Virus record (IMG/VR): IMGVR_UViG_3300011403_000023
Location: 1-38,074 of that record
DNA length: 38,074 nt
Direction: 5' to 3' (one strand)
DNA from: a virus
Lineage: Duplodnaviria; Caudoviricetes
The notes under the pieces were generated by a model. That model worked only from the letters and a program-made list of their open reading frames with translations, was not told where the DNA came from and did not search any database. Made by a program: the position numbers and the translations under genes. Each line of letters opens with the position of its first letter. Position 1 is the first letter of the stretch. This document shows positions 4,750-29,143 of the stretch, piece after piece.

Positions 4750-5577
4750 ATGCAACCCACATCAGCCAAGCGGCGCAGCGTCGATCAAGGGTACGGACGC
4801 ACTTCACGCGCCTACGAGGTGCCCACCGGGGAAGTCTACGACAGCGTGACTTCCATCCTCGGCGTCGTGGCGAAGCCCGCCCTAATCACCTGGTCCGCCA
4901 ACATGGAGCGCGCCTACGTCACGCAGGCCGCTGCGGACCTCTACGAAGACACCAGCCCGACGCCGAAGATGTCGCGGCAGGCGTTCCTGACTTCGCTGGA
5001 CCTCCGACTCTCGAAGGTCAAGGCGCACACGCGCGCGCTGGAGAAGGCGGGCAACATCGGCTCACAGGCGCACGCCTTGATCGAGTGGAGCCTGCGCCGG
5101 CAGCTCGGGCAGATCGTCGGCGCGCAGCCCGAGGTCGTGCCCGAGGCGGCACACAGCTTCGCCTGCTTCGAGTCCTGGGCCGAGGTCAGCGAGTTCACTC
5201 CGAAGCTGATCGAGCAGGTCGTGTGGAGCCGGCAGCACGAGTACGCCGGTACGCTGGACATCCTGGGCGAGGCGCGGTGCATGCGCTCCGAGGCCGAGGG
5301 TGAGCTGGTGCAGTTCGTGGGCGACTGGAAGACGGGGAAAGCCATCTACCCGGAAGCCAAGATGCAAAGTGCCGCCTACATCCGCGCGCTGCGCGAGATG
5401 GGGCACGTCACGGGTGATGTGTGGGGCCTTGTGGTGCGTTTGCCCAAGGTGGCGGCGGACCCTGGCTTCGAGGCTGTCTGGATCTCCCCCGAGGAGCAGC
5501 AGGAGCATTTCGATGCGTTCCTTGCCGCCAAACGTCTATGGGATTGGACGCAGCGGCAAAGGAAGTCTGGAGAGTGA
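4750..5577 (+). CDS. PD-(D/E)XK exonuclease (phage recombination nuclease)
   Basis: YDSVTSIL, GSQAH, IEQVV, YAGTLD, VGDWKTG and QSAAY match the RecB-like nuclease motifs. Confidence 0.85.
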   Translation: MQPTSAKRRSVDQGYGRTSRAYEVPTGEVYDSVTSILGVVAKPALITWSANMERAYVTQAAADLYEDTSPTPKMSRQAFLTSLDLRLSKVKAHTRALEKAGNIGSQAHALIEWSLRRQLGQIVGAQPEVVPEAAHSFACFESWAEVSEFTPKLIEQVVWSRQHEYAGTLDILGEARCMRSEAEGELVQFVGDWKTGKAIYPEAKMQSAAYIRALREMGHVTGDVWGLVVRLPKVAADPGFEAVWISPEEQQEHFDAFLAAKRLWDWTQRQRKSGE

Positions 5578-5585
5578 ATTCGTGT

Positions 5586-5649
5586 AGCTACGCGGCGCTG
5601 CGTTGCTGTCTCCCCTCTCAGCGCAGTCAAAAAGATCCGTCGCGTAGCT
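5586..5649 (+). ncRNA. Candidate structured intergenic RNA element
   Basis: A 12-bp stem (5586-5597/5638-5649) encloses an 8-bp hairpin (5598-5605/5619-5626) with a pyrimidine-rich loop. Confidence 0.35.
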
Positions 5650-5650
5650 C

Positions 5651-5697
5651 GCCGCCCCTCGCGTTTGCTTGCACTCACGCGGGGGGCGGCTTTCTTT
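5651..5697 (+). terminator. Intrinsic terminator
   Basis: 14-bp GC-rich stem GCCGCCCCTCGCGT/ACGCGGGGGGCGGC followed by TTTCTTT. Confidence 0.75.
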
Positions 5698-5725
5698 GTC
5701 AAGCAGTGCAAGGGGGTGCAAGAGC

Positions 5726-6034
5726 ATGACATTCGATGGTGAGACCTACGATGCCACGCGCGACGAGGATCGCCTTGGTTCTCAGCTCGGCGCTGTGTTC
5801 GCGCTCATGCGTGACGGGGCCTGGCGCACGCTGCCCGAGATCATCGCGCTATGCGGGGGCAACGAGGCCAGCATCTCGGCGCGCCTACGTGACCTCCGCA
5901 AGGCCCGGTTCGGCGCGCACATCGTTCAGCGCGAGTACGTGTCCGACGGGCTGCACAAGTACCGCATGCTGAAGAACAGCGTGACCGAGCAGCGCAGCCT
6001 GTACGGGCGGGAGAGCATGGGGGATCCGGCGTGA
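5726..6034 (+). CDS. Winged-HTH DNA-binding protein
   Basis: LMRDGAWRTLPEI...EASISARLRDLRK..FG.H.V.R is a typical phage wHTH pattern. Confidence 0.7.
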   Translation: MTFDGETYDATRDEDRLGSQLGAVFALMRDGAWRTLPEIIALCGGNEASISARLRDLRKARFGAHIVQREYVSDGLHKYRMLKNSVTEQRSLYGRESMGDPA

Positions 6035-9828: not shown

Positions 9829-10055
9829 AGCGCCGCCGCCCTCGGGTTCACCAGTCGATGCGCACCAAGCGCAGGGCGAGGCGTGAGCGACTGTCGCGCA
9901 GCATCGCGGACAATGCGCGCCGCATTCGCGCGTGGCTGGACCTGTGGAACCGCATGGAGTTTGACCGGCCCACTGTGGCTACTGGCGTGGTGGCAAGCGA
10001 CGGTCGGCGCTCGTACACGGTCGGCGACTTCGTGAAGTACATCGCCAAGCCGTGA
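9825..10055 (+). CDS. Small basic hypothetical protein
   Basis: GTGA overlaps at both ends. Confidence 0.5.
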   Translation: MKRRRPRVHQSMRTKRRARRERLSRSIADNARRIRAWLDLWNRMEFDRPTVATGVVASDGRRSYTVGDFVKYIAKP

Positions 10056-11746
10056 CGCTCGCCGCGCCCACCGTCAAGCTGCACGGCTACGGCGCGATCA
10101 AGGCGCTCGCGCATTGCCGTGATCCGCGCATCCTCATAGAAGGGGGCGCAAACTCTGGAAAAACGAGCGGGATTTGCCGAATCATCGAGTGGCACTGCTG
10201 GGCGCATCCAGGTATCCGCGTGCTGTTCTGCCGACAGACGATGCAGAGCTTGCGCGAGTCGATCATGGTGACGCTCGAGGAGAAGGTGTGGGCGCCGATG
10301 ATGGGAGGCCGGCGACACCCGGCGATGAGCGGCACCGCATCGCGCGGCACGCGCCGCACGTACCAGTACCCGAACGGCTCGGTCATCGTCATCGGTGGTC
10401 TCGAAGATCCGGGCTGGACGTTCTCGATGGAGTACGACCTCATTGTGGTCTTCGAGGCGTGGGAGATCAGCCGCGACAGCATGGAGAAGCTGTACCGCGC
10501 CAACCGCAACCACATGCTCTGCCGCTTCAACGAGGCCAACAAGGAACTTGCGGCCAGCCTAGAGAGCGACTGGAACGATGAGCGATGGTTACGCGGGCAC
10601 CAGTGCTGGCAACAGATCATCGCGGACACGAACCCGCACAGCGAGTTTCACTGGCTGAACCAGATCGCGGCGCCCATCGGCGGCGAAGAGGTAGACCGCA
10701 TCAAGTCGGATCAGCTCCCGTCGCGGCGTGTGTTCCGCTCACCGGATCACCCGTTCACGCGCATCCTGTCGCGCCACGTAGACAACCCCGCTTGCACCAA
10801 GGACGACCTGACGCGCCTACGTGCGCTCACCGGGCACAGGTACGTGAACCTCTACCTGGCGCTGTGGGCGAGCGCCGTCGGCCAAATCTGGCCCAGCTTC
10901 GACCCGACCGTTCACATGCAGACTGGGCGCGTCTCCCGTGATGGCGACATGGACCCCGCGTGCATGAAGGATGGCAAGTTCATCGCGCCGGACCGGCGCC
11001 TGATGTACCTCGAGCTTCTCGGCGAGCGTGGCCCGCACCTACCGGCCAAGATGGATGTCAAGTGGGCGTTCGCGTCGATGGACTTCGGGTATCGCAAGGC
11101 CGGCTGCGGGCAAGTGTGGCTCGTGGACAACGAGGACCGCATGTACCGCGCGGTTGAAATCTACCGCTGCGAGATGATGGATGACTGGTGGGCCGAGAAG
11201 TTCATTCAGCTGTGCTTTGAGTTCAACCTGCACGCGATCGTGTGCGACTCGGAAGATCCTGAGCGCGTGGTGAAGTTCAACGACCGCCTGTCCAACTTCA
11301 AGAACAGGAACGGTCAGGCCATTGCGCAGGGCGTTGACAAGAGTGTGCGGCGCGGCAACCGCAGCCGCTTCGTGACGACCAAGCTCGACCTCGTGCGCGA
11401 CATGCTGGCGCCGGATCAGGTGGGCGGGCCACGCATGTACTGGCTCAGGGATGCCTTGCGCGAGGGGCGCGACCCGATCTGCAAGGACAAGATGCTGCCG
11501 ACGTGCAGCGAGGAAGAGATCCCCTCCTACGTGTTCCCGGAGCACAAGGACGGCAAGGAAGACTCAGAGGAGCCCGACGATGCCTGCGAGGACCACGGCT
11601 GCGACGCGGCGGCCTACGCCGCGGTCTACAAGTGGCTGATGGACCCGGTGGGGATTCGCCAGAAAGACCACATGCCGATCGGCACGGCGGGGTGGCGCAT
11701 GGGACACAAGGATGTGCTCAGGAAGAGCAGGAAGTGGCAGAGATGA
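10052..11746 (+). CDS. terL: Terminase large subunit
   Basis: Walker A GGANSGKT, YPNGS.I.IGGL, Walker B-like LIVVFE, coupling motif DTNP, and RNase H-like nuclease residues in SMDFG, VCDS and DHGCDA. Confidence 0.92.
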   Translation: MTLAAPTVKLHGYGAIKALAHCRDPRILIEGGANSGKTSGICRIIEWHCWAHPGIRVLFCRQTMQSLRESIMVTLEEKVWAPMMGGRRHPAMSGTASRGTRRTYQYPNGSVIVIGGLEDPGWTFSMEYDLIVVFEAWEISRDSMEKLYRANRNHMLCRFNEANKELAASLESDWNDERWLRGHQCWQQIIADTNPHSEFHWLNQIAAPIGGEEVDRIKSDQLPSRRVFRSPDHPFTRILSRHVDNPACTKDDLTRLRALTGHRYVNLYLALWASAVGQIWPSFDPTVHMQTGRVSRDGDMDPACMKDGKFIAPDRRLMYLELLGERGPHLPAKMDVKWAFASMDFGYRKAGCGQVWLVDNEDRMYRAVEIYRCEMMDDWWAEKFIQLCFEFNLHAIVCDSEDPERVVKFNDRLSNFKNRNGQAIAQGVDKSVRRGNRSRFVTTKLDLVRDMLAPDQVGGPRMYWLRDALREGRDPICKDKMLPTCSEEEIPSYVFPEHKDGKEDSEEPDDACEDHGCDAAAYAAVYKWLMDPVGIRQKDHMPIGTAGWRMGHKDVLRKSRKWQR

Positions 11747-12040: not shown

Positions 12041-13267
12041 ATGATCGCGCTTCTCCTCAGCCTCGTTCTGTCCGCCCCGCAGGTCAACCGTAACGCGCTC
12101 GTCATCATCCTGGATGACGTGGCCCGCGCCGACCTCGAAGAGGTGAGCGCGCTCGGGGGCACGCCGAACCTCGATGCTCTGGCGGCGCAGGGCGTCACGT
12201 TCACGCGCTGCATGGCGTCGAGCGTGTGCTCGCCATCGCGCCGCGCCATCGTGTTCGGGCGGTACTACGCGTTCGACGCTGGTGTGTGTGGGCCGGCGAA
12301 CTGGTACACGCCGGGATTCTCGCAGACATCGCTCGCCGAGGTCGTGCCAACGTACGCGAGCGCCATCATCGGCAAGTGGCACATCGGCGGTGACGCAGTG
12401 GGTGGCGCGTGGCAGTGCGCGCCGATCTCGCAGGGGTTCAACTACTGGGTAGCGGGGCACGAGAACCTGCGCGCCTGCTCGAACATCAGTTACACGAACT
12501 GGGAGCGCGTCGATGCGTGCGACAGCGCGTTCACGGTGGAGTACGAGCCATTCGCTGTGCGGGACGCCTTCGTCGCTGGCTGGCCGGCGACGGTAGGCCC
12601 GAAGCTCGGGATCGTGGCGTCGAGCTTGGCGCACGGCCCCCACCACAAGCCGCCCGCATCGTTGCTTCCGCCGGGCTACCCGGCGCCGGGCAACGTGCCG
12701 CGTGACCAGTACCGCGCCATGATCGCGGCCTACGACACGCTCATCGGAGAGATGCTCGCGGTGGTGGACCTGCGCTACACGATGGTGTTCGTGGTGGGGG
12801 ACAACGGGACGCCGACCACCTTCGAGCCGCGCGGCAAGGCCACCTGTTACGAGCGCGGCATCAACGTTCCGCTGATCGTGGCTGGGTGGACCGTGAGGAA
12901 CCCCGGGCGCGTCACCGACGAGCTGGTGCATGTGGCCGACATCCCTGCCACGATCGCGGCTCAGTTCGCCAGCACGCTCGTGCAGGAGTGGGACGGGGCT
13001 TCGCTGCATATGACCTTGGCGGACCTCCCGCACGCGCCGCACCACAACATCGTGATCGGCGGCTCTGGCGCTGGGCCTGGTGGGCTCTATGCGCGCTCGT
13101 GGCGGGTGAAGCTGATCGACCGTGACCCACCGCTCCAGGATGAGCTGTACGACCTCGTGGGTGACGGGTACAGCGAGACGGTGAACCGGGTGGGCGAGAA
13201 CAGCTATGCGGCGGACGAGCTGGAGCTGCGGGCGGCGCTGGACGCATTCCGGGCGAGGACGTACTGA
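12041..13267 (+). CDS. Secreted Cys-type (formylglycine-dependent) sulfatase
   Basis: Hydrophobic N-terminus, then NALVIILDD, TPNLDALA..G..F, signature CSPSR, GKWH, HGPH, GDNG, GK...YE.G..VPLIV, D..ATI and ELYDL. RBS GGAG. Confidence 0.92.
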   Translation: MIALLLSLVLSAPQVNRNALVIILDDVARADLEEVSALGGTPNLDALAAQGVTFTRCMASSVCSPSRRAIVFGRYYAFDAGVCGPANWYTPGFSQTSLAEVVPTYASAIIGKWHIGGDAVGGAWQCAPISQGFNYWVAGHENLRACSNISYTNWERVDACDSAFTVEYEPFAVRDAFVAGWPATVGPKLGIVASSLAHGPHHKPPASLLPPGYPAPGNVPRDQYRAMIAAYDTLIGEMLAVVDLRYTMVFVVGDNGTPTTFEPRGKATCYERGINVPLIVAGWTVRNPGRVTDELVHVADIPATIAAQFASTLVQEWDGASLHMTLADLPHAPHHNIVIGGSGAGPGGLYARSWRVKLIDRDPPLQDELYDLVGDGYSETVNRVGENSYAADELELRAALDAFRARTY

Positions 13268-13356: not shown

Positions 13357-13384
13357 TTGACAGGCCCCCCCAAAGGGCTAGTGT
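13357..13384 (+). promoter_or_regulatory. Sigma70-like promoter
   Basis: TTGACA (13357-13362), 16-nt spacer, TAGTGT (13379-13384). Preceded by an 11-bp inverted repeat at 13272-13282/13341-13351. Confidence 0.6.
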
Positions 13385-13391
13385 CTGTGCC

Positions 13392-13496
13392 GTGAGCTTC
13401 TGGGTTATCTTGTGGCTCGCTGTGGCCGCAGCCATCGGTATCGTGTCGGCGGCGGTAGGCCGGGTCATGCGAGACGATGACGAGGGATACCTGTGA
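13392..13496 (+). CDS. 34-aa single-TM peptide, probably leaderless
   Basis: GTG 7 nt after the -10 box. Hydrophobic FWVILWLAVAAAIGIVSAAVG followed by an acidic tail. GTGA overlap with the next gene. Confidence 0.55.
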   Translation: MSFWVILWLAVAAAIGIVSAAVGRVMRDDDEGYL

Positions 13497-13699
13497 GCCT
13501 GACCCGCCGCGCTCTATTCGGCCTCGTCGCCGGCCTGCCGTTCGCGTTGAAGGCTGGCGCGGTTGAGAAGCCTCATGTCTGGCCTGCACCCACGTTCAAG
13601 GGCGTGCCGTTCCTGTACGAGAAGGCCATGGAAGGTCCGCGCCTGTGGCATATGTCGAGCGTCGGCGATCCGACGGACTGGGACAGGTTGCCCCTGTGA
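13493..13699 (+). CDS. Tat-signal mini-protein carrying a major-capsid-like segment
   Basis: LTRRALFG twin-arginine motif, h-region and AxA site. WPAPTFKGVPFLY matches the MCP segment WPAPMFNGVPFVF. Confidence 0.75.
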   Translation: MSLTRRALFGLVAGLPFALKAGAVEKPHVWPAPTFKGVPFLYEKAMEGPRLWHMSSVGDPTDWDRLPL

Positions 13700-14004
13700 G
13701 CGCCCGCCCCGTCTGGAAGAAGCAGAACCAGCTCGTCGAAGCCGAGCAGCTCACGGCGCGATTCATCCCCGAGGGCCTAGAAGAGGCCCGCGCCGGGCTC
13801 ACCGAGCACATTGTATACACCCTGCGCACCCCGTTCGGGCTGACGATCGTGCCTCTCGGCGCTTGGATCATCTACGACGAGGAGGGCGTGCGTGCGGTGC
13901 CCCAAGCAGTCTTCGAGCGCCTGTACAAGCCAGTGTCGATCGCTGGGAAAGCGGTGGCGCTGGGCGAGAGGGCGGTCAGGCGCATCATCGAGGCGACACG
14001 ATGA
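13696..14004 (+). CDS. Conserved phage protein (KK...VEA.Q / G.WII...EG / FE..Y family)
   Basis: WKKQNQLVEAEQ...LRTPFG....LGAWII...EG...AVFERLYKPV resembles a widespread phage family of unknown function. Confidence 0.6.
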   Translation: MSARPVWKKQNQLVEAEQLTARFIPEGLEEARAGLTEHIVYTLRTPFGLTIVPLGAWIIYDEEGVRAVPQAVFERLYKPVSIAGKAVALGERAVRRIIEATR

Positions 14005-14393
14005 CGCGCTGGACCAAGCCATACATCAAGCCGACGTGGGATGCGATGCAGAGGCATTGGGATGAGGACGCCAAGGCGCGCGAAGACGTTCCGCCGCGCG
14101 CTCCAGCCGTCGAGTTCCGGTGGTTTCGGCATGACGGGGGTAAATGGCACTGCATCGAACGCTTCGAGGGCGAGTGCCTTGTTTCGGCGTGCGGCAACTT
14201 CTTGAGGTCCGGCTACGCCGAACTATCGAGCAGTCCGCCAGTGCAGCAGTCCTGCTTGAGCTGTTTGCGCAGGCTGTCGAAGCTCCCGCCTGGGACGTAC
14301 ACCGATGATGCGCTACCGGCCAAAGCCGAGCAGACGGCGCGCGCATGGCTTGGGGGAACATTGCCTGCTTACAAGGAGGGTCGGCGGTGCTGA
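14001..14393 (+). CDS. Hypothetical protein, possible zinc finger
   Basis: KWH...SACG...CLSC ligand pattern. ATGA overlap. Confidence 0.55.
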   Translation: MTRWTKPYIKPTWDAMQRHWDEDAKAREDVPPRAPAVEFRWFRHDGGKWHCIERFEGECLVSACGNFLRSGYAELSSSPPVQQSCLSCLRRLSKLPPGTYTDDALPAKAEQTARAWLGGTLPAYKEGRRC

Positions 14394-16447
14394 AGTTGAC
14401 CCCGGACTCCCTGTTCCACGAGTTCGAGGCCGCGCACGCCAAGACCAAATCCGTCCTCGCCAAGCACAAGGAGCAGGTCGCGCAACGCGCCGGACCGCAC
14501 TACATGGAGGGGCTGACCGCGCAGCAGCCGATGCGTCAGAACGTGATGCACCGCTGGCTCTCCTACGTGATCCCGCAGGTTGTGTGGCGGGACCCTGCGG
14601 TCGAGGTGGGCACGCTGGTCGAGAGCGAGGGCGGCGAGGACTTCGAGCTTGAGCTGGCTGCGAACCGGCTCATCGTGGACCAACAGTTCAAGAAGCTGTA
14701 CGCGGACGGTCCTGTGCAGGACATGCAGTACAACTTCGGGGTGCTCATGGTCGTGCCGGAGCCCGTGGCTGGCGCGCGTCCGATCGAGGGCGTGGGGACG
14801 GACTGGGCGCCTGGTGACACGAAGCGGGGCGCACCTCCGCCGCGCACGCCGTGGCTGCCGAAGTCCTACCGCATCCAGCAGCATCGGTACTTCGAGGACT
14901 CGCTGGCCTCCACGCGCGACGAGATCCGCTTGCAGGGGCACATCTGGGTCAAGGATAAGGACGACATCCTGAAGGAGGGCGAGAAGGGCGGCTGGGATGT
15001 CGAGACGATCGAGCGGTACGCTGCCGCTGACTCGCAACTCGAGTACCTCGGGCGCTCTGAGTCAGACGCGCAGGGTGGTGACATCGTGCGGCGCGACGAG
15101 ATCGTGGGCGCCGAGGTGTACGTGCCCGAGTACGACCTGGAGGAGGGGAACGCCTGGGGTGTCCCGGCCTCGCCCGGCCCGGAGAAGGGCTTTCACGGAA
15201 CCATCTTCACGATCCTGGTGAACCGTGCGGCGGCGCTCCAGGCGGACGCGAAGAAGGACGAGACCAACGTCTTCACGATGAAAGACGTGAAGGAGTCGCA
15301 GGCGAAGGGGACGAGGTTCCCGCGTGTCCCGCGTCCCTGGTACGGCTCGGAGCGTGGGCCTTACGTCATCTTCGGTCAGTTCACGGTGCCCAATCACACT
15401 CTCCCGCTCGGCTCGTTCAGCGCGGTCGGTGAGGAGATGATGCAGATGGGGACCGACTTCGAGATCGCGCAGAAGATGCTGCGCTCGTACAAGAAGATCG
15501 GGCTGATAGCCAAGGGGACGGACGAGGATGTCAAGGCCGTGGTCGGCGGCGAACACCTCAACCTCTACAAGATCGCGGGAATTACCAAGGAGGACGTGAT
15601 CGCCTTGGAGCTGGGCGGGCTGACGGATCAAGCCGTGGCGCACCTCGAGTTCTCGCGGCAGAACTTGGAGAGCACGCTGGGGCTGAACGAGATGCACTCG
15701 GGCAACGTGTCCGGGGTAGGCACGGCGACGGAGCAGACGATTGCGAACAACGCGGCGCAGGCACGCTTCGACGGGATCAGGCAGTCGGTCGAAGATGCGG
15801 TGATCGACCACATCTGGCGCTGCTGCTGGTTCTTGTACGAGGACAACCGCGCGGCGATGCAGCTTCCGAAGGACGCTAGTGCCGAGCTGGTGAAGCGCGG
15901 GCTGATGGAGCCGGAGATGGTGAGCTTGCCCGATGGGTCGGTGGAGCAGCGCATCCCGCAGGCGACGTACTTGGGTGGGAAGCGGGAGGGCGTGGAGCGC
16001 CTGCCATTCAACGCGCTCTCCGTGCGGATCAAGCCCTACTCGATGGAACGCACGAGCGAGGCGCGCCAGGCGGCCACGATGGCGACGGTGCTCGGCGCGG
16101 TGGGGCAGATGGTGCCGATGGCGGCGCAGTTCCCCGCGTTCCACTGGGGCGAGCTGGCCGACAAGATCGGCGATGCGATCAACTTCCCCGGCCTCGGGCG
16201 CATGTTCGGGAAACCGGACGAGATCGCGGCGAGCGGGGTCCAGGTGGCGCAGGCGATGAACGCGGGCGAGGCGGCGCCGGCGGGGAAGATCCAGCCCAAG
16301 GTGGCGAGCATGGGGTCAGGCAGGCCCGGTGGTGGCGCAGGGGCGCGTCCTCAGCGCATGCCGCAGACACGAGGTAGCGCAGGGGCGCGGCAGGGACCGA
16401 AGGCCACGGCGCAGCCTAGCAAGCCGGTGAAGGCGGGGGTGGCATGA
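14387..16447 (+). CDS. Portal protein
   Basis: GTG after AAGGAGG. About 686 aa, located between terL and the scaffold/capsid genes. G..G..TATE motif typical of P22-like portals and a disordered C-terminus. Confidence 0.8.
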   Translation: MLKLTPDSLFHEFEAAHAKTKSVLAKHKEQVAQRAGPHYMEGLTAQQPMRQNVMHRWLSYVIPQVVWRDPAVEVGTLVESEGGEDFELELAANRLIVDQQFKKLYADGPVQDMQYNFGVLMVVPEPVAGARPIEGVGTDWAPGDTKRGAPPPRTPWLPKSYRIQQHRYFEDSLASTRDEIRLQGHIWVKDKDDILKEGEKGGWDVETIERYAAADSQLEYLGRSESDAQGGDIVRRDEIVGAEVYVPEYDLEEGNAWGVPASPGPEKGFHGTIFTILVNRAAALQADAKKDETNVFTMKDVKESQAKGTRFPRVPRPWYGSERGPYVIFGQFTVPNHTLPLGSFSAVGEEMMQMGTDFEIAQKMLRSYKKIGLIAKGTDEDVKAVVGGEHLNLYKIAGITKEDVIALELGGLTDQAVAHLEFSRQNLESTLGLNEMHSGNVSGVGTATEQTIANNAAQARFDGIRQSVEDAVIDHIWRCCWFLYEDNRAAMQLPKDASAELVKRGLMEPEMVSLPDGSVEQRIPQATYLGGKREGVERLPFNALSVRIKPYSMERTSEARQAATMATVLGAVGQMVPMAAQFPAFHWGELADKIGDAINFPGLGRMFGKPDEIAASGVQVAQAMNAGEAAPAGKIQPKVASMGSGRPGGGAGARPQRMPQTRGSAGARQGPKATAQPSKPVKAGVA

Positions 16448-19060: not shown

Positions 19061-20296
19061 ATGGCCACCGCAATGGACCCGTTCAGCATGTTCATGCTGA
19101 TCACGGGGCCGGCGTTCTTGAAGGACGACGAGTCCGTCATCAACGCCGTAGTCAAGAACAGTTATCTCTTGCCGCGCTTCATGGACGGCAAGGACATGGA
19201 TCTTCTGCTGCAAGGAGGCACGAAGATTCAGGACGTGATCTATCTCAACGAGGACTCGGACGCCGAGTTCTACAAGTCGAACGAGCAGGACTTCACCGTC
19301 CGGAACCAACAGGTGGGTACGAGCTGGGAAGCCAACTGGCGCCTGCTCAAGAACTCGACCTCATGGACGGACCTGGAGATCGGGCTCAACGGGGGCGACA
19401 GCTCCACGATGGGCGGTATCGGTGCGTTCCACCGGTACAAGCGGATCCAGAAGCTCAAGCACATGAACCTCTGGACGACCCAGATCCACAAGATGGAGGA
19501 CGCGCTGACTTCCACGCCGTCCTTCGCCGAGATGGAGACGGGCGACGGGAAGTTCCCGTACTCGCTGGGCTGCTTCATCACTGGCCCGAACAGCGCGGGC
19601 AACGTTGGCGTGCCGAACACGGCCGCTGGCGCGTGGACGACCGTCGAGCAGATCCAAGGATTCGTGGCGACCGCTGCGCCGGCTGCTGGAACCGCTGCGT
19701 CCAAGTGGCGTAACCAGAGCGCGACCTTTGCCGGCGGTGACATGACCGCTGGGCAAGAGCGATTCTGGACGGGGATGCGCGAGCTGCACCACAAGTGCAA
19801 GTTCGAGCGTCTGCCCCGCTTCGGGAGTTACTCCGAGCCTTCTCGTTCACCGTCGTTCTACGCGGTGAGCTTGTGGGGCCTGGCGCTCGCCGAAATGTGC
19901 ATGAGGTCTGAGCAGGACGCGTACCTCGCCGGCCGTCAAGACCCGGCCTGGCCCGCTCCGATGTTCAACGGCGTGCCGTTCGTGTTCGTGCCCGCGTTGG
20001 GCACATCGGTCATGTACAACAACCAGAACGGCACGGCAGTGCTCGGTTCCGAAACCACGTCGAACGTGGCCGGTCCGCGCGTGCTCGCCGTGAACGGCAA
20101 GGTGTTGAACATGATTATGCACAAGGATCGTGTGATGTACCGCACGCCTCCGGCTCACCCGGATCGTCAACCGTTCACGACGGTGATGTTTACGGACACC
20201 TGGTACAACGTCGTGTGTCAGAACCGGCGCGAGCTGGGCATCCTGACGCCGACGACCGCCGTCACCACTCCCGCCGCGCCGTCGGCCGGTATCTAG
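19061..20296 (+). CDS. Major capsid protein
   Basis: Strong RBS AAGGAG, 411 aa, follows the scaffold gene. Motifs GG.KI, W.N, FNGVPF and CQNRR..G are typical of HK97-fold podophage coats. Confidence 0.85.
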   Translation: MATAMDPFSMFMLITGPAFLKDDESVINAVVKNSYLLPRFMDGKDMDLLLQGGTKIQDVIYLNEDSDAEFYKSNEQDFTVRNQQVGTSWEANWRLLKNSTSWTDLEIGLNGGDSSTMGGIGAFHRYKRIQKLKHMNLWTTQIHKMEDALTSTPSFAEMETGDGKFPYSLGCFITGPNSAGNVGVPNTAAGAWTTVEQIQGFVATAAPAAGTAASKWRNQSATFAGGDMTAGQERFWTGMRELHHKCKFERLPRFGSYSEPSRSPSFYAVSLWGLALAEMCMRSEQDAYLAGRQDPAWPAPMFNGVPFVFVPALGTSVMYNNQNGTAVLGSETTSNVAGPRVLAVNGKVLNMIMHKDRVMYRTPPAHPDRQPFTTVMFTDTWYNVVCQNRRELGILTPTTAVTTPAAPSAGI

Positions 20297-20853: not shown

Positions 20854-20872
20854 GTTTCAGGTTTCTCGGCTT

Positions 20873-20914
20873 GGGGGGCGGAGGCCCGAACCTCCGCCCC
20901 TCGGCCTCTTCTCT
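20873..20914 (+). terminator. Hairpin after the capsid genes (terminator or attenuator)
   Basis: GGGGGGCGGAGG-CCCGAA-CCTCCGCCCCTC followed by a weak pyrimidine tract. Confidence 0.55.
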
Positions 20915-20930
20915 CGAAGGAGCTTCTCTC

Positions 20931-21221
20931 ATGGTTGTGGCGAGAAAAGGATCATTCGCAGGCGCCTACGAGACGCTCACCATTGCGGCCACAGCGCTTG
21001 GCCCAAGCGCGGCATTCCACACGTCCGCCTGGGCCATCTTCGGGCCAGGCGAGACGGGGGATACCGTGCGCTGGCGTGACGACGGAACGGACCCGACCAC
21101 GCTTGTGGGGCATCTGCTGGCCGCTGGTGCAACGCTCACCTACTACGGTGACTGCTCGAAGATCAAGTTCATCCGCACAGGCGCGACGAGCATGACGTTG
21201 CCAACGAGCTACTACCGATGA
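20931..21221 (+). CDS. Small virion protein, paralog 1
   Basis: RBS AAGGAG. VRWRDDGTDPT..VGH motif, beta-rich. Confidence 0.7.
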   Translation: MVVARKGSFAGAYETLTIAATALGPSAAFHTSAWAIFGPGETGDTVRWRDDGTDPTTLVGHLLAAGATLTYYGDCSKIKFIRTGATSMTLPTSYYR

Positions 21222-21520
21222 CCGTTGCACGAAAAGGCGGATGGGCGTGCGTGGGATTCGAGACGCTCACTGTTGCCGGTACGCCGATCGGCCCAACGTC
21301 AACCTTTCACACGGCGGCGTGGGCGCTGTTCGGTCCGACCGAGGGCACGTCGCCGTTCCGGATTCGATGGCGTGACGACGGGACGCAGCCGACCGGAGGC
21401 GTCGGGCACATCATCGGCGAGGGCGAGACGTTCCTGTTCTACGGCGACCTGTCGAAGCTCCAGTTCATCCGTGTGACCGCAGAGAACTCCGCCACCGTCC
21501 CCGTGAGCTACTACAAGTGA
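21218..21520 (+). CDS. Small virion protein, paralog 2
   Basis: Colinear homolog of 20931..21221 (IRWRDDGTQPT..VGH, ends in SYYK). Confidence 0.7.
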   Translation: MTVARKGGWACVGFETLTVAGTPIGPTSTFHTAAWALFGPTEGTSPFRIRWRDDGTQPTGGVGHIIGEGETFLFYGDLSKLQFIRVTAENSATVPVSYYK

Positions 21521-22867: not shown

Positions 22868-25800
22868 ATGCGCGAACTCGTCCCCATCGTTCCGCCGAAG
22901 CAGGGTCTGAACGACGCGAAGGCGTACAGCGAGCAGCCCCCGCAGAGCACCAGCCTCTCCCGGAACATGCGGACGCAGCAAGCCTCGACGGGCAGGCTGC
23001 GCGTCTCACAGCGCGCCGGGTATCGCCTCTGGAGCCCTCGGGCGATCCTCACCAACCGGCTCGCCTTCACCGAGGATCTTTCCCACTTCCGGGACACGGT
23101 AGAGGGGGACCGCCCGTTCCCGGTCGAGGACGGGTGGACGGTAGCCGCATCGGGCGGGGCGGGCTCGTTCTCGTCCACTGCGGACGGGACGCTCGGCCCT
23201 GACCGCGTGAGCCCCGCACAGCTCGCCAAACAGCTCCTAGCGGGCTCAGGGCGTGCCGAGGTCGGGCAGACCTTCGATCCGCTGGACCCGCCCACGTCGC
23301 TTCTGGCGAAGGCTGGGGCCACATGGCTCCGCACGGCCAGCCGAGACCTGATGTTCTCGGTCTACATGAAGGTCGGGGACGCGACGACGACGCAGCTCTC
23401 GATCCGGCAGGGTACGACCGTGGAGGTCTCCGGCGCCCCGTTCACGCGCCTCACGATCACTTGGACAGCCGGGGTGGCCTCGATCACCGCCACGAACACG
23501 GGAGGATCCGGCTCGCACCAGAGCGGGCTAACGGACGAGGGGAACGGCTGGTATCGCATCTGGGCCAGCATCACCTGGAACCTCGGGTTCGAGCCGACCG
23601 CGCCGACGCTGCGGTGCCTCGTGCAGCCGAACCTGACGGACACGACCGTCAAGGGCACGTACCTCTGGGGCGCGCAGCTCGAGCTGGTGCCCACGGCGAC
23701 GACCGAGCCGACGCGGTACGAGCCGGTCCTCGGCAAGAACGACACGCTCGGCACGCGCAAGGGCGCGGCGCTCCACGCGGTGAACCATCTCCAGCGGCGC
23801 CTCGACTACCGGCGCCGGCAGACGATCGTGGCGGACCGCAGCGTGCAGACGCCCGCGAAGGCATCGGCCTACGCCATCGCCTACGACCGGCAGCGCAACC
23901 GCTACCTCCTCGAAGCTCAGGCGGTGGTCAAGTACAGCTCGCAGGGCACGCTGATCTTTTCTATCCCGGTGCCGATCGACGACCCTAACCACGTCTGTCA
24001 AGCCCTGCACCTGGACGAGGTGGATCAGATCTACGTAGGCGTCACGTCGGGCGGGGACGCAGCGAAGGCGCGGCTCTTCTGCTTCCGGCAAGGCCCCGAG
24101 GTGGTCGGCGGTGAGGTGCGGGAGGACTCGCACCATCTGCACTGGAGCGTCCTGACGGGACAGTACGTCGTCAACATCAAGAGTCATGAGGGCGTGCTCT
24201 ACACGCTCCAGGACGACCCTACGCGCACGCGGAGCGAGCTGGTGATGTACGACGCGCTCGACTTCGCGGAGCCCGAGGTGGCGCTCCGGAAGGTGACGCC
24301 GTACCCGAGCGCGGGCATGGCCATCAAGTCCGATGGGTCGATCGTCACCTGTCACACGACGAACCTGACGCGCGGGCTCGACCCGAGCGCCAACGGGAGC
24401 GACACGCTAGGTCCGTGGCCGACGGCGGTGGGCTGGACGCCGGAGAACAATCAGGCGAACTACGCCACGGCGGCGTGGGCCAGGCTGCGGTCTGACTACA
24501 TCCTCGGCCCGGGGCGCCGCACGATCGACGACTTCGATGCGGACGAAGAGGTCACGGACTGGGTAGACCACACGGGGAAACAGCGGAACGCCTACAAATT
24601 CGGGGGGGGCCTGCACGCGGGGCCGACGGCGAACCTGCGCGGGATGTCAGGGATCCCCGGTGTCAAGTTCAACGGCATCGATCAGGCGCTCACGAGCAAC
24701 CCGAACCCTGGCACGGACGAGACGAACCTCGACTTGCACAGGACGCTCATCCCCTCATACGACGGCGCCAAGTCCACCACGTTCGTCGTGTTCCGTCCGG
24801 CGTTCAAGGCAGTGCAGGGCGCTGTGATCGGGCAGCCCATGACGGGCGCCGTGGCTGCGCCTGCAAACCACTACGTCGTGTGCGCCAACCGCGACGACAC
24901 GGACACGATTGCCGCGCCGTCCCGAGGGCGCGTGTCGCTCTACGATGACACGACCGGCAGCGCGGACGTAGCGGTCGGCACGGGGGCTCAGCCGCAGAGT
25001 GCGCTGATCGAGTCGGGCGGACTCGTCAACTTCTGCATTATGGCGATGAAGCGTTCGGCTGTTGCCGCCGAGGGGGAGATGCGCGTCAATGGCTCGCTCA
25101 TCGAGCCCACCTATGCCTCGATCGCCGCAGCCGGGGAAGGGGCCACCACGCTCGGCTACTACGAGCAGAACTCGGGCTTCGGGTTCTTCGAGGGCGAGCT
25201 GCTCGAGGTGCTCGTCTACAATTCGCTGCTCTCAACCACGGACGTTCAGCTTCACGAGGGATACTTCGCCAACTACTACGGCGGACAGGGGCGCCTCGAC
25301 GCGGCGCACCCCTACAAGCTCACTCCCGGCGCGGGCCTCCTGGTGCCATCGACGGCGCCGATCCCGACCGGGAAGGCCGATGTCAACAAGCTGAACCACC
25401 GGAGCACGATCCTCGCCAAGTTCGCCCCGGGTGGCGACCTCAAGTGGACGGTCGTGGACTATTTCGGCGTGGGCTACGACGTGGCGCTCGACCCATCCGG
25501 CAACATCTTCTCGCTGGGCGAGTACAACGCGACCGAGGGGGCGCCGAGCGTAGGGACGCCCGCGTTGCCGGCGAACCGGGGCGAGCAGGGCTGGCTGCGC
25601 AAGGTCATCGACAACGGGGAGAGCGCCGACCCGGACGACTTCGTTGCGGACTGGACGCAGAACAAGCTCCAGCTCCTCGGCGTATCGGTCGGGCGCGACT
25701 TCTCGGATGCGTTCTGGACGAAGACCAACGTAACGGTCACGACGAACACGACGGGCGACCCGATCGGGTCCAGCACGGCGGACACGCTCACGACGACCGT

Positions 25801-28492
25801 GGCCGGTGGGACGGTGCGGCGCGATTTCGCAGCCGCCACGCTCATCGAAGCATCGGATTACGTCTTCTCGGTGTACCTCAAGGTGAGCACGGCGACCGTC
25901 TCGCGCGTGAAACTCTCGCAGTCGGGCGGCACCGGCTCGATCCAGGTGGACTACACGCACGCCACGCGCGCCGCCACGCCGACGGTGGCGGGCACCGGGC
26001 ACAGATACCGCTGGGACGTGACGGACCAGGGCAACGGCTGGACGCGGATCCAGGTGTCGATGGACTACAAGGCGGCGGACTCGACCACGTTGCGCCTGGA
26101 AATTCTCCCGGACACGACCGGGACGGCTGCGTGCTTCGCCTGGGGCGCCATGTTCGAGCGCGGCCAGATCGCTACGCCGGTCTTCCTGAAGGCGCTGGAC
26201 GGCGTACACCGCCCGAAGGACTCGGCCATCCCGGTTCAGCTCGGGACGAGCTACCCGCGCATGGACGTGGACACGTTCGGCAACGTCATGGTCCCGGGCC
26301 CGTGGGCGACCGATGTCAGCTCCGCGCTCAGTCGAACGATGTTCACCGCGCGCGTCTACGACAAGAACCTCTACCTGCGCGGCGACCTCGACATCAACCC
26401 GGCGGCCTCGCACACGGTCATTCCCGGGCGCGGCATCGTCGTGAACCGTGAGCCGCCGAGCTACATCGAGAACAACCCGGGGATGATCCGGAACCTGCTC
26501 GGCTTCTCGGAGCGGTTCGACAATGCGTACTGGACCAAGACCAACGTGACCGTGACGGCGAACGCGGCGCTGGCGCCGGATGGGCTGTTCGAGGCAGACA
26601 ACCTCGCCGACTCCAGCGCGTCCGTGCAGGGCACCGTGATTCGTGAACTGACCACCGAGATCGACACGGGCGAGGTCTACACGTTCTCGGCGCACTTCCT
26701 CCCGGTGACGGCGACGACGACGCGCCTCGTGCTGGAACACACGGCCGGCGCCGCGCAGTCCACCGAAGCCCTCATCACCTGGAACGTGGCGACGGGGCGC
26801 GCCCCGATCGTGACGCTGACCAACGCTGGCAGCGGCGTGCATACCTACGAACTGGAGCCGGCCGAGAACGGGTACTTCCGGCTCTCCGTGTCGCTCACCT
26901 ACGACTCCTTGAAGGGGTCGCTGCGCGTCCGGATCAACCCGGACGGGACGAACGCCAACACGGGATCCGTGCGCGCATGGGGTGTCCAGCTCGAGCGCAG
27001 CGACGTGATGACGCCCTATCAGCGCATCGACGGGCGCAAGCCCTTCCAGCCCGTCCTGAGCACGACCGACCCGATCGAGCTGACCGACCACATGAGCGTC
27101 GCCACGCTCAACGATGACGTGGAGAGCAGCATCACCACGCTTGCGCCGACGTTGTACGAGGTGCCGCTTGTAGACAGCGACCCGAACGGGCTCGCGGCGC
27201 GCACGACCAAGATGGTCACGGTGGCGCGCGGGTCGATCGTCGTGGTGGACCGGATCGGCGAGCATCAGACGCCGCGCGGCGGCTCGTCCTGTCTCGACCA
27301 GAACGCGCGGTACATCTCCGTGACGAGCCTGTACCAGCGCCTCATTGCCACGGATGGCACTCGCTCGGTCATCTACGAGCCGCACGTAGACGGGCAGGTC
27401 CGCGCGTACAAGGCGACGACCGGCGAGGTGCCCGAGGGCGTGGAGCTGTGGACCTCCTGGCGTGGGCGTGCGGTTGCGCTCCGCACACGAGACGATCCGC
27501 ACGCCTGGTTCATGTCGGCGATCGAGGACGTGCGCGACTGGGACTACTTCACGCCCCCGCTGCACTCCTCGAAAGCCGTGTTCTCGACGACCAGCCGTGC
27601 GGGCTTGGCCCCGGACATCATCAACACGGCCATTCCCTACGACGATGAGCGCCTCATCCTCGGGTGCGACCATGCCATCTGGTACTTGCCCGGCGACCCC
27701 CTGAGCGAACGCGCACAGTGGCAGCACATCTCGGACATCACCGGGATCAGCTTCGGGAATCACTCCTGGTGCAAGGATGACAAGGGGATCCTGTACTTCT
27801 TCGGCTCGCGTGGTGGCTTCTACGCCATGCCGGCCGGTGGTGGCCCGCAGTCCCTGACCACCGAGACGATCGACCGGCGCCTCTCTGCGATCGACCTCGA
27901 TCGCTACTACGTCGAGTGCTTCTGGAACTGGCGCGAGGAGGGAGTCAACATCTACGTCATCCCCTTCGGTGCGCCGGGGACCATCGTGGCCCACTTCTTC
28001 TGGGGCCGGCGCTTCGACGAGTGGCGCACGGACGACTTCGTGAACGGGCTGATTCAGCCGACCTCGGCGGCGGTGATCGACGGGGAGAAGTCGAACGATC
28101 GGCGCCTGCTCTACGTCAACGGAAACCTAAACATCCTCCAGTGGGACGAGACCTCGAAGACGGATGACGGTACGGCCATCATCGCTCGTGAGCGGATCGG
28201 GCCCTACGACGTGGGCGGGGACATGGAGTCGCGCTGGAACGAGCTGACCGTGCTGCTCTCGGAGGATTCCGACGGGGCGCGCTTCGAGATGTTCGCGGCG
28301 GACACGGCGGACAGTCCAGGCGCGGTGAAGGTCACGGGGCTGCTAGGCCCTGGGCGCAACGGGCGGAAGTTCGGGCGCGTGCGCGGCTCGAAGTTCTGGC
28401 TGGAGCTGGTGAACGATACGGCGGGTCAGAGCTTCGCCTTCGAGGAGGGCGGGATCTACGGGGCGCGGGCAGGGAGGGCGCGCGTGCGCTAG
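22868..28492 (+). CDS. Giant tail nozzle/stabilization protein with three CBM-like inserts and a LamG-like domain
   Basis: Follows the adaptor. P..GLN...N.R N-terminus and propeller-like C-terminal part as in P22 gp10/T7 gp12-like proteins. Three WGAQLE-type repeats and a W.D.TG...F.GEL.EVLVYN domain. Confidence 0.7.
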   Translation: MRELVPIVPPKQGLNDAKAYSEQPPQSTSLSRNMRTQQASTGRLRVSQRAGYRLWSPRAILTNRLAFTEDLSHFRDTVEGDRPFPVEDGWTVAASGGAGSFSSTADGTLGPDRVSPAQLAKQLLAGSGRAEVGQTFDPLDPPTSLLAKAGATWLRTASRDLMFSVYMKVGDATTTQLSIRQGTTVEVSGAPFTRLTITWTAGVASITATNTGGSGSHQSGLTDEGNGWYRIWASITWNLGFEPTAPTLRCLVQPNLTDTTVKGTYLWGAQLELVPTATTEPTRYEPVLGKNDTLGTRKGAALHAVNHLQRRLDYRRRQTIVADRSVQTPAKASAYAIAYDRQRNRYLLEAQAVVKYSSQGTLIFSIPVPIDDPNHVCQALHLDEVDQIYVGVTSGGDAAKARLFCFRQGPEVVGGEVREDSHHLHWSVLTGQYVVNIKSHEGVLYTLQDDPTRTRSELVMYDALDFAEPEVALRKVTPYPSAGMAIKSDGSIVTCHTTNLTRGLDPSANGSDTLGPWPTAVGWTPENNQANYATAAWARLRSDYILGPGRRTIDDFDADEEVTDWVDHTGKQRNAYKFGGGLHAGPTANLRGMSGIPGVKFNGIDQALTSNPNPGTDETNLDLHRTLIPSYDGAKSTTFVVFRPAFKAVQGAVIGQPMTGAVAAPANHYVVCANRDDTDTIAAPSRGRVSLYDDTTGSADVAVGTGAQPQSALIESGGLVNFCIMAMKRSAVAAEGEMRVNGSLIEPTYASIAAAGEGATTLGYYEQNSGFGFFEGELLEVLVYNSLLSTTDVQLHEGYFANYYGGQGRLDAAHPYKLTPGAGLLVPSTAPIPTGKADVNKLNHRSTILAKFAPGGDLKWTVVDYFGVGYDVALDPSGNIFSLGEYNATEGAPSVGTPALPANRGEQGWLRKVIDNGESADPDDFVADWTQNKLQLLGVSVGRDFSDAFWTKTNVTVTTNTTGDPIGSSTADTLTTTVAGGTVRRDFAAATLIEASDYVFSVYLKVSTATVSRVKLSQSGGTGSIQVDYTHATRAATPTVAGTGHRYRWDVTDQGNGWTRIQVSMDYKAADSTTLRLEILPDTTGTAACFAWGAMFERGQIATPVFLKALDGVHRPKDSAIPVQLGTSYPRMDVDTFGNVMVPGPWATDVSSALSRTMFTARVYDKNLYLRGDLDINPAASHTVIPGRGIVVNREPPSYIENNPGMIRNLLGFSERFDNAYWTKTNVTVTANAALAPDGLFEADNLADSSASVQGTVIRELTTEIDTGEVYTFSAHFLPVTATTTRLVLEHTAGAAQSTEALITWNVATGRAPIVTLTNAGSGVHTYELEPAENGYFRLSVSLTYDSLKGSLRVRINPDGTNANTGSVRAWGVQLERSDVMTPYQRIDGRKPFQPVLSTTDPIELTDHMSVATLNDDVESSITTLAPTLYEVPLVDSDPNGLAARTTKMVTVARGSIVVVDRIGEHQTPRGGSSCLDQNARYISVTSLYQRLIATDGTRSVIYEPHVDGQVRAYKATTGEVPEGVELWTSWRGRAVALRTRDDPHAWFMSAIEDVRDWDYFTPPLHSSKAVFSTTSRAGLAPDIINTAIPYDDERLILGCDHAIWYLPGDPLSERAQWQHISDITGISFGNHSWCKDDKGILYFFGSRGGFYAMPAGGGPQSLTTETIDRRLSAIDLDRYYVECFWNWREEGVNIYVIPFGAPGTIVAHFFWGRRFDEWRTDDFVNGLIQPTSAAVIDGEKSNDRRLLYVNGNLNILQWDETSKTDDGTAIIARERIGPYDVGGDMESRWNELTVLLSEDSDGARFEMFAADTADSPGAVKVTGLLGPGRNGRKFGRVRGSKFWLELVNDTAGQSFAFEEGGIYGARAGRARVR

Positions 28493-28501
28493 GGTGTAGC
28501 C

Positions 28502-29143
28502 ATGAAGCCCTACTACGATCACGGCGGCATCACGATCTACCACGGGGACTGCCGGGAGATCCTGCCCAGCATCAAGGCGGACGTGATGGTGACGGACCCG
28601 CCGTACGGGATTGACGCCAACACACGCGGGTGGTCGGCTGGGCGTTCGGTTGCTGGCGTTGCGCGAGACTGGCCTGCTGTGCGCGGCGATGACGAGCCTT
28701 TCAATCCGGCGCACCTGCTGGCGTTAGGCTTGCCTACGGTCTTGTGGGGCGCCAACCACTACGCCGATTCGCTCCCACGCTCGCCGTCGTGGTTCGTCTG
28801 GTACAAGCGAACCAACGGGATCGAGAACGATTCTGCCGACGCCGAGCTTGCCTGGACCAACCTCGGCGGGCCTGCGCGAGTTTTCCATCATCCGTGGATG
28901 GGGATGCTGCGCGCCAGCGAGAAGGGCGAGGCTTACCATCCGACGCAGAAGCCCGTTGTGCTGATGTTGTGGTGTCTACGGCGCTGCCCGGATGGTGACG
29001 TGCTTGATCCGTACATGGGGGGTGGATCTACGCTCCGCGCCGCGAAAGACCTCGGCCGCAAGGCCATCGGCATCGAGATCGAAGAGCGCTACTGCGAGAT
29101 CGCGGCGAAGCGGCTGGCGCAGGAGGTGTTCTCCTTCTCGTGA
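28502..29143 (+). CDS. Orphan DNA methyltransferase (N4-C/N6-A, beta class)
   Basis: IYHGDC, catalytic TDPPY, HPTQKP, SAM-binding VLDPYMGGGST and IGIEI..YCEIA..RL. Confidence 0.92.
   Translation: MKPYYDHGGITIYHGDCREILPSIKADVMVTDPPYGIDANTRGWSAGRSVAGVARDWPAVRGDDEPFNPAHLLALGLPTVLWGANHYADSLPRSPSWFVWYKRTNGIENDSADAELAWTNLGGPARVFHHPWMGMLRASEKGEAYHPTQKPVVLMLWCLRRCPDGDVLDPYMGGGSTLRAAKDLGRKAIGIEIEERYCEIAAKRLAQEVFSFS

Follow-up and report, generated by a model that had tools for sequence, protein, structure and literature searches.

The Lit defense senses a short peptide of phage capsid protein, and the Tat export pathway carries along partners bound to its substrates. CapRel is described as a defense that recognizes capsid protein (PMC13728456), capsid and tail nozzle as the targets of the bacterial sensors Avs7/8/10 and Avs13, which recognize extended whole folds by shape through large interfaces rather than short peptides (PMC12803255), and DSAD1 as a small phage protein that inhibits DSR2 and imitates its trigger, the tail tube (PMC10973363). 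Tat signal peptides are characterized by a Z-R-R-x-hydrophobic-hydrophobic consensus at the border of the n- and h-regions, a hydrophobic stretch and an A-x-A site (PMC13673990).

Here we analyze a phage gene of 68 amino acids (aa) whose product reads as a predicted Tat leader, a linker, a piece resembling the capsid protein and a piece resembling a tail nozzle, and which belongs to a wider family of small genes with twin-arginine (RR) leaders. We are highly confident of this anatomy and of the family. The window, the whole stretch of DNA that was analyzed, is an entire linear virus record of 38,074 bases, about 59% complete. Pfam and PHROG scans identified a lambda-like replication module in it, and the features used below are as follows:

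10052-11746, terminase (Pfam and PHROG scans)
12041-13267, sulfatase gene (PF00884), between the terminase and the small gene cluster
13357..13384, + strand, promoter-like site with a perfect -35 hexamer, a 16-nt spacer and TAnnnT, 7 nt upstream of the first gene of the small cluster
13392..13496, + strand, upstream hydrophobic ORF of 34 aa that overlaps the start of the 68-aa gene; no family in NCBIfam
13493..13699, + strand, the 68-aa gene, GTG start
13493..13561, + strand, predicted Tat signal peptide (residues 1-23: T-R-R-A-L-F, 13 uncharged residues, Lys, A-G-A)
13580..13630, + strand, capsid-like piece (residues 30-46)
13631..13693, + strand, tail-nozzle/head-closure-like piece (residues 47-67)
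13490..13498, + strand, left copy of a 9-nt direct repeat, at a stop/start overlap and at the left end of the stretch missing in a relative
13693..13701, + strand, right copy of that repeat, at a stop/start overlap and at the right end of the missing stretch
13696..14004, + strand, downstream gene of 102 aa (phrog_419, E 4e-4), conserved in the three closest relatives
14345-16447, portal-like gene (weak phrog_332 match)
19061..20296, + strand, major capsid protein (MCP) with the HK97 fold (NF033394, E 1.7e-11, below cut-off; AlphaFold2; Foldseek)
19949..19999, + strand, MCP segment resembled by the small gene (residues 297-313, with a predicted strand at 305-309)
22868..28492, + strand, virion protein of 1874 aa (NF048003) with head-spike-fiber repeats and a C-terminal head-closure/nozzle-like domain
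27491..27544, + strand, matching segment of the 1874-aa protein (residues 1542-1559)

Elsewhere in the window, two adjacent small look-alike ORFs (20871-21221 and 21218-21520) lie past the capsid and decoration-like genes and have no PHROG match, and a DNA methyltransferase gene (28502-29143) lies amid the virion genes. A homolog of the window's sulfatase precedes the terminase in the related loci L008 and L009. Capsid relatives at 30-37% come from assemblies labelled Acidobacteriota, Anaerolineales, Pirellulales, Conexibacteraceae and Thermoplasmatota, which are too distant to use for host assignment.

The ORF that the initial annotation had reported at 13493-13699, on the + strand with a GTG start and 68 residues, is present. 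Its GC content by codon position (0.66/0.50/0.82) resembles that of real genes of the window, and it shares a GTGA overlap with each neighbor. Scans of Pfam, PHROG and NCBIfam assigned the ORF to no family, and its ESM Atlas matches, all below 0.9, serve as leads only. The promoter-like site is the sole match to its pattern in the window (0.06 expected; found in 6 of 100 shuffles), the pattern having been chosen post hoc, after the site was seen, and a stricter promoter scan did not pick it up. The N-terminus had been called a twin-arginine signal peptide, and its anatomy does fit the Tat consensus: T4-R5-R6-A7-L8-F9 matches Z-R-R-x-hydrophobic-hydrophobic, the h-region of 13 uncharged residues has a mean hydropathy of 2.15 although it is on the short side, and A21-G22-A23 forms a predicted signal peptidase I site of the A-x-A type. 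Neither Tat HMM supports the call, however, as scans of the leader with TIGR01409 and PF10518 gave no match at E up to 1, nor up to 5. Of ten family members tested, one, other than the 68-aa gene, passes TIGR01409, and none of four did so in another run with the leader included. Both arginines are present in 3 of 3 close homologs.

Residues 30-42 had been reported to match MCP residues 297-309 at 9 of 13 positions, with the DNA at 13580-13618 and 19949-19987 agreeing at 32 of 39 nt and differing synonymously at three; all of these counts are exact. The annotation had also allowed for the similarity not being significant, an outcome that did not occur in shuffle tests. The Smith-Waterman score of 64 between ORF and MCP was reached by 1 of 20,000 shuffled ORFs, and none of 500 shuffles of residues 24-47 reached the score against all long frames of the window. 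When the window is compared in all six frames, nothing apart from the ORF itself scores as high as the MCP, and the capsid-like piece also matches a capsid profile built without the phage's own MCP (0 of 5000 shuffles). At the DNA level the identity reflects protein identity and codon bias only (same codon at 5 of 9, with 4.9 expected). Two other 39-nt pairs in the window outscore this one, at 33 of 39; these best direct repeats lie at 645/1348 and 25707/26523, the second pair inside the 1874-aa virion gene.

The resembled MCP segment is of middling conservation within the capsid family (rank 160 of 399 windows), and the phage's own MCP is tied fourth among 119 family MCPs as a match to the piece, the top ten all being near relatives. 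By this ranking, the piece tracks the capsid at the level of the clade and not strictly of its own gene. The description of the piece as a copy of the phage's own capsid segment thus holds for the similarity but not for a recent copy, and recent DNA duplication was rejected as its origin because synonymous sites are saturated. An AlphaFold2 model of the MCP, built from 50 homologs (pLDDT 78.8), has phage capsids and one encapsulin as its top Foldseek matches. In the model, the resembled segment is strand 305-309, which is followed by a long loop and then by the GPRV strand at 341-344; going by HK97 topology, both strands presumably belong to the axial domain. The full HK97 fold is found in the donor but not in the 68-aa gene, of which about 17 residues align. 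The GPRLW of the ORF had been equated with the GPRVL of the MCP, and family MCPs do read GPR(F/V/Y)W at this position, but residues 47-67 align better with a motif of a tail protein. GPRLW lies at the seam of the two pieces, and either may be its owner.

Only the capsid piece had been recognized before; it stands, but a second piece, from a tail protein, had been missed. Next after the MCP among the frames matched by the ORF comes the 1874-aa virion protein, and residues 47-67 match a profile of 32 of its homologs, built without the phage's own protein, with 19.5 bits and an E-value of 2e-8 (0 of 5000 shuffles). These homologs share the motif W-x-M-S-x-x-G-D-P-x-x-W-D, and by eye the piece has less in common with the phage's own 1874-aa protein than with the consensus of its family. 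Among 14 C-terminal regions scanned, six match phrog_578 (head-closure), with a best E-value of 1e-8 in homologs and 0.008 in the phage's own protein, and the donor region aligns weakly with the tail nozzle PDB 8ck1 (E 0.039), with the same motif aligned. From these matches, the region is likely a tail-nozzle domain.

In another run, a 217-nt contig of a close relative passes directly from 13486 to 13693 and lacks exactly the 68-aa gene, its flanks of 122 and 89 nt carrying 6 and 3 differences; as one contig with a depth of 2.5, it is modest evidence of absence. Another run contains pieces of the 68-aa gene at 98-100% identity. Among relatives for which DNA is at hand, the nearest three (capsid 64-66%) retain the downstream gene and lack the 68-aa gene, which is accessory. 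One of these three, L001, has a different, unrelated RR gene (5521-5817) between its terminase and portal genes and just upstream of the latter, whose tail corresponds to a different segment of the capsid, at profile positions 83-114 (0 of 5000 shuffles). Both the accessory status of the 68-aa gene and the presence in L001 of another RR gene, built with another capsid piece, are as expected of conflict genes. L001 also encodes a TatA-family protein (802-1011; TIGR01411 E 1e-14, PF02416 E 8e-16), directly upstream of a 239-aa ORF with an RR leader (L001:1038). A general link between TatA and RR genes was rejected, TatA being found in 1 of 69 records.

Word-index protein searches returned the ORF and its two homologs only. 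GenBank phages gave no match to the ORF, and a locus search with the three-protein alignment gave none; a third HMMER match listed (P0003) was dropped as a 225-aa repeat protein that shares a short stretch. The two homologs have the leader in common with the ORF and keep the capsid-like motif behind different linkers, such that the three-member subfamily retains T-[FY]-x-x-[VI]-P-x-x-Y-[ED] while linker lengths differ by up to about 35 residues. Against the capsid profile, the two closest homologs have motifs that score weakly, with 49 and 386 of 5000 shuffles. A DNA pattern combining leader and motif returned two loci, one of them real. Among 81 loci of the window's capsid family, only L001 has a convincing RR gene, the other matches to a loose filter being wrong-frame noise as judged by eye, and five genome loci yielded no convincing RR gene.

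Beyond this subfamily, about 200 and 160 stretches in IMG/VR match two narrow DNA patterns, chance matches included. When loci were sought by the leader M-N-R-R-G-F-[LF], without regard to the tails, 121 of the roughly 200 were returned, with 118 distinct ORFs, 100 of which were retained by a filter on length and hydrophobicity. Sixteen of these 100 tails match a PHROG (E up to 0.02), and 13 of the 16 matches are to virion proteins. A second scan used a downstream leader motif from another leader lineage, was blind to the RR itself and returned 111 leaders; RR-x-hydrophobic-hydrophobic is present in 108 of them, the other three are cut short or broken, and there is no KR or RK variant. In this sample, which overlaps the first in a few contigs, 14 of 109 tails match a PHROG, nine of them virion-structural. 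Most tails (84 of 100 and 95 of 109) have no PHROG match, and leaders are far more uniform than tails. The tails of the family also draw on portal, tail-fiber, collar and sheath pieces. An F/Y-x-G-[IV] motif like that of the ORF occurs in 5 of 214 tails (0.64 expected). One of the F-x-G-I tails matches its own capsid with an E-value of 1.5e-11, and two further ones, from records that are 50% and 23% complete, have no second match there.

Some members are arranged unusually. G025, G026, L326 and L383 carry two RR-leader genes in tandem, their tails differing (L370 is the G025 pair), and in L320 and L323 an upstream stop or a frame change breaks the leader but leaves the downstream motif and tail in place. 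The RR tail at G004:C1 (40456-40803) matches a 955-aa frame without annotation in that genome (score 79) and also, to a weak degree, the capsid; in another genome (G024:C1, 1997-2359), a small ORF without an RR leader matches its own N4-type capsid (E 5e-5).

Whether such tails follow the capsid of their own phage was assessed at several scales. With unselected queries and 10-kb flanks, outside which many of the capsid genes lie, 5 of the 68 queries, the window's among them, have their own locus as top match, where about one is expected. With whole records, from 33 phages, most of them preselected for virion-like tails, plus the window, and with one wrong-frame ORF dropped, the own genome ranks first for 14 of 38 tails (13 of 37 without the window; 1.13 expected). 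Ten of the 13 first-ranked targets outside the window are capsid proteins, from at least seven families. Capsids were identified in 17 genomes, and there 14 of 20 RR frames match their own capsid (E below 1e-3), compared with 5 of 3953 other small frames; these RR frames are selected, and only the floor, at least 13 of 100 RR-leader tails matching the capsid of their own genome, counts as a frequency. The proposal that homologs track their cognate MCP is thereby upheld in that tails resemble their own capsid family, but at clade level, not strictly for the own gene. The RR gene is on the strand opposite the capsid gene in 4 of the 17 genomes and is therefore not tied to the head operon.

Synonymous sites are saturated when tails are compared with their own donors (114 of 255 identical codons, with 136 expected), and the tails are therefore not recent copies. 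Capture from a relative's gene could give the same saturated picture, and saturation alone is no proof of selection on the piece. Among related tails of the wider family, the dN/dS comparison that the annotation had called for indicates purifying selection, with values below 1 in 25 of 27 pairs and a median of 0.28, read with the caveats that local alignments bias the ratio downward, that pairs are non-independent and that six values are saturated.

A fixed export address, short mimics under selection and patchy presence together point to a role in conflict. We tentatively favor, with somewhat less than even confidence, a bait that uses Tat export to dispose of a host protein that reads virion motifs. 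The gene would have a promoter of its own and be expressed ahead of the structural genes; its predicted leader would be recognized by TatC; the tail would bind a sensor, a chaperone or a protease with specificity for short virion motifs; and the bound partner, either exported together with the bait or trapped in the membrane, would be carried to the inner membrane or through it, and through this removal the bait itself would trigger no defense. That one 45-residue tail is made of pieces of two different virion proteins argues for this reading. Against it, pieces of 17-21 residues may bind Avs sensors poorly because these recognize extended folds, and sensors activated by binding could be triggered, not blocked, by a capsid peptide. 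The pieces might instead bind capsid or tail subunits, or assembly partners, of a co-infecting related phage or satellite, pulling these to the membrane and excluding the competitor at the stage of assembly, with the phage itself escaping by timing or by an excess of subunits. Their resemblance to the consensus of a clade or family rather than to the own gene alone fits such interference, and the promoter-like site would permit expression apart from the late operon. The copied capsid segments across the family, which include N-terminal, internal and C-terminal stretches and which we take from HK97 topology to be subunit-contact elements, fit it as well. A 17-residue internal strand would, however, have to displace the native strand, self-poisoning would carry a cost, and no integrase or lysogeny is shown for the 59%-complete record; we consider interference unlikely. 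The A-x-A site behind the hydrophobic stretch, together with the many tails from outer virion parts (fibers, collar, sheath), would suit a mature peptide that acts outside the cytoplasm, as a decoy for periplasmic or surface proteins that recognize virions or on release at lysis. Capsid protein is made and sensed in the cytoplasm, though, and the accessible literature yielded no periplasmic capsid sensor, which leaves this reading quite improbable.

The leader itself could be the working part, jamming or titrating the Tat translocon or a signal-binding chaperone or disturbing the membrane, with the tails as captured scraps of abundant late genes. The greater uniformity of the leaders and the many tails with no known source are in keeping with this, and recent capture from a relative would also leave synonymous sites saturated; but the low dN/dS among related tails and the motif that the subfamily keeps despite differing linkers speak against it, and we rank it lower again, as improbable. 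We judge it very unlikely that the gene product tethers or nucleates the assembly of the phage's own heads or tails at the membrane: the gene does map between the terminase and the portal-like gene, and it resembles structural proteins that the phage itself encodes, but it is absent from close relatives, family genes are often far from or opposite the capsid gene, and the piece used varies from phage to phage. Least credible is chance similarity or a non-coding frame, to which we give next to no weight. The matches are short, yet two independent profile matches each withstood 5000 shuffles, homologs exist, the codon pattern is gene-like and presence and absence are precise, and this reading is already largely refuted.

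If the gene is a bait for host proteins that read virion motifs, it would represent immune evasion by export and not by inhibition, and the copied pieces would mark virion motifs that bacteria recognize, including in uncultured hosts. More doubtful is the generalization of this reading to a widespread, modular counter-immunity device, in which a fixed Tat address and swappable virion epitopes would catch host sensors and expel them from the cytoplasm via Tat; were it true, a catalogue of the copied pieces would map the virion motifs read by bacterial immunity. Even under another mechanism, a large class of 'hypothetical' small phage genes would gain a shared and testable design, namely a conserved Tat-type leader joined to short, selected mimics of the phage's own structural proteins. 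The annotation had known of no described system of this kind, and our search of the literature, outside which most subscription papers lie, agrees in returning no description of a family of RR leaders with virion mimics. The 68-aa gene is apparently one member of an undescribed and widespread design.

Compared with known systems, the gene shares with Tat signal peptides (TIGR01409, PF10518) the RR motif, the hydrophobic stretch and the A-x-A site; unlike them, its leader has no HMM match, has a short hydrophobic stretch of 13 residues and is encoded by a phage, and instead of a folded enzyme it carries a 45-residue passenger pieced together from virion proteins. The source families of the two pieces are the HK97-fold MCPs (NF033394-like) and, probably, the podovirus head-closure/nozzle proteins (phrog_578), of which the gene holds 17 and 21 residues, respectively, so that neither fold can form. 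The pieces come from classes of protein that Avs7/8/10, Avs13, CapRel and Lit recognize, but these defenses act on the host side, unlike the 68-aa gene. DSAD1 occupies a defense sensor by imitating a virion protein, the same role that is proposed for the 68-aa gene. It is described as filling the pocket of the trigger, and the accessible part of the source mentions neither an export signal nor copied virion sequence (PMC10973363); the comparison is by description only. In the 68-aa gene, the resemblance to a trigger lies in its sequence likeness to capsid and nozzle-like proteins, and by analogy DSAD1 would be its closest functional precedent.
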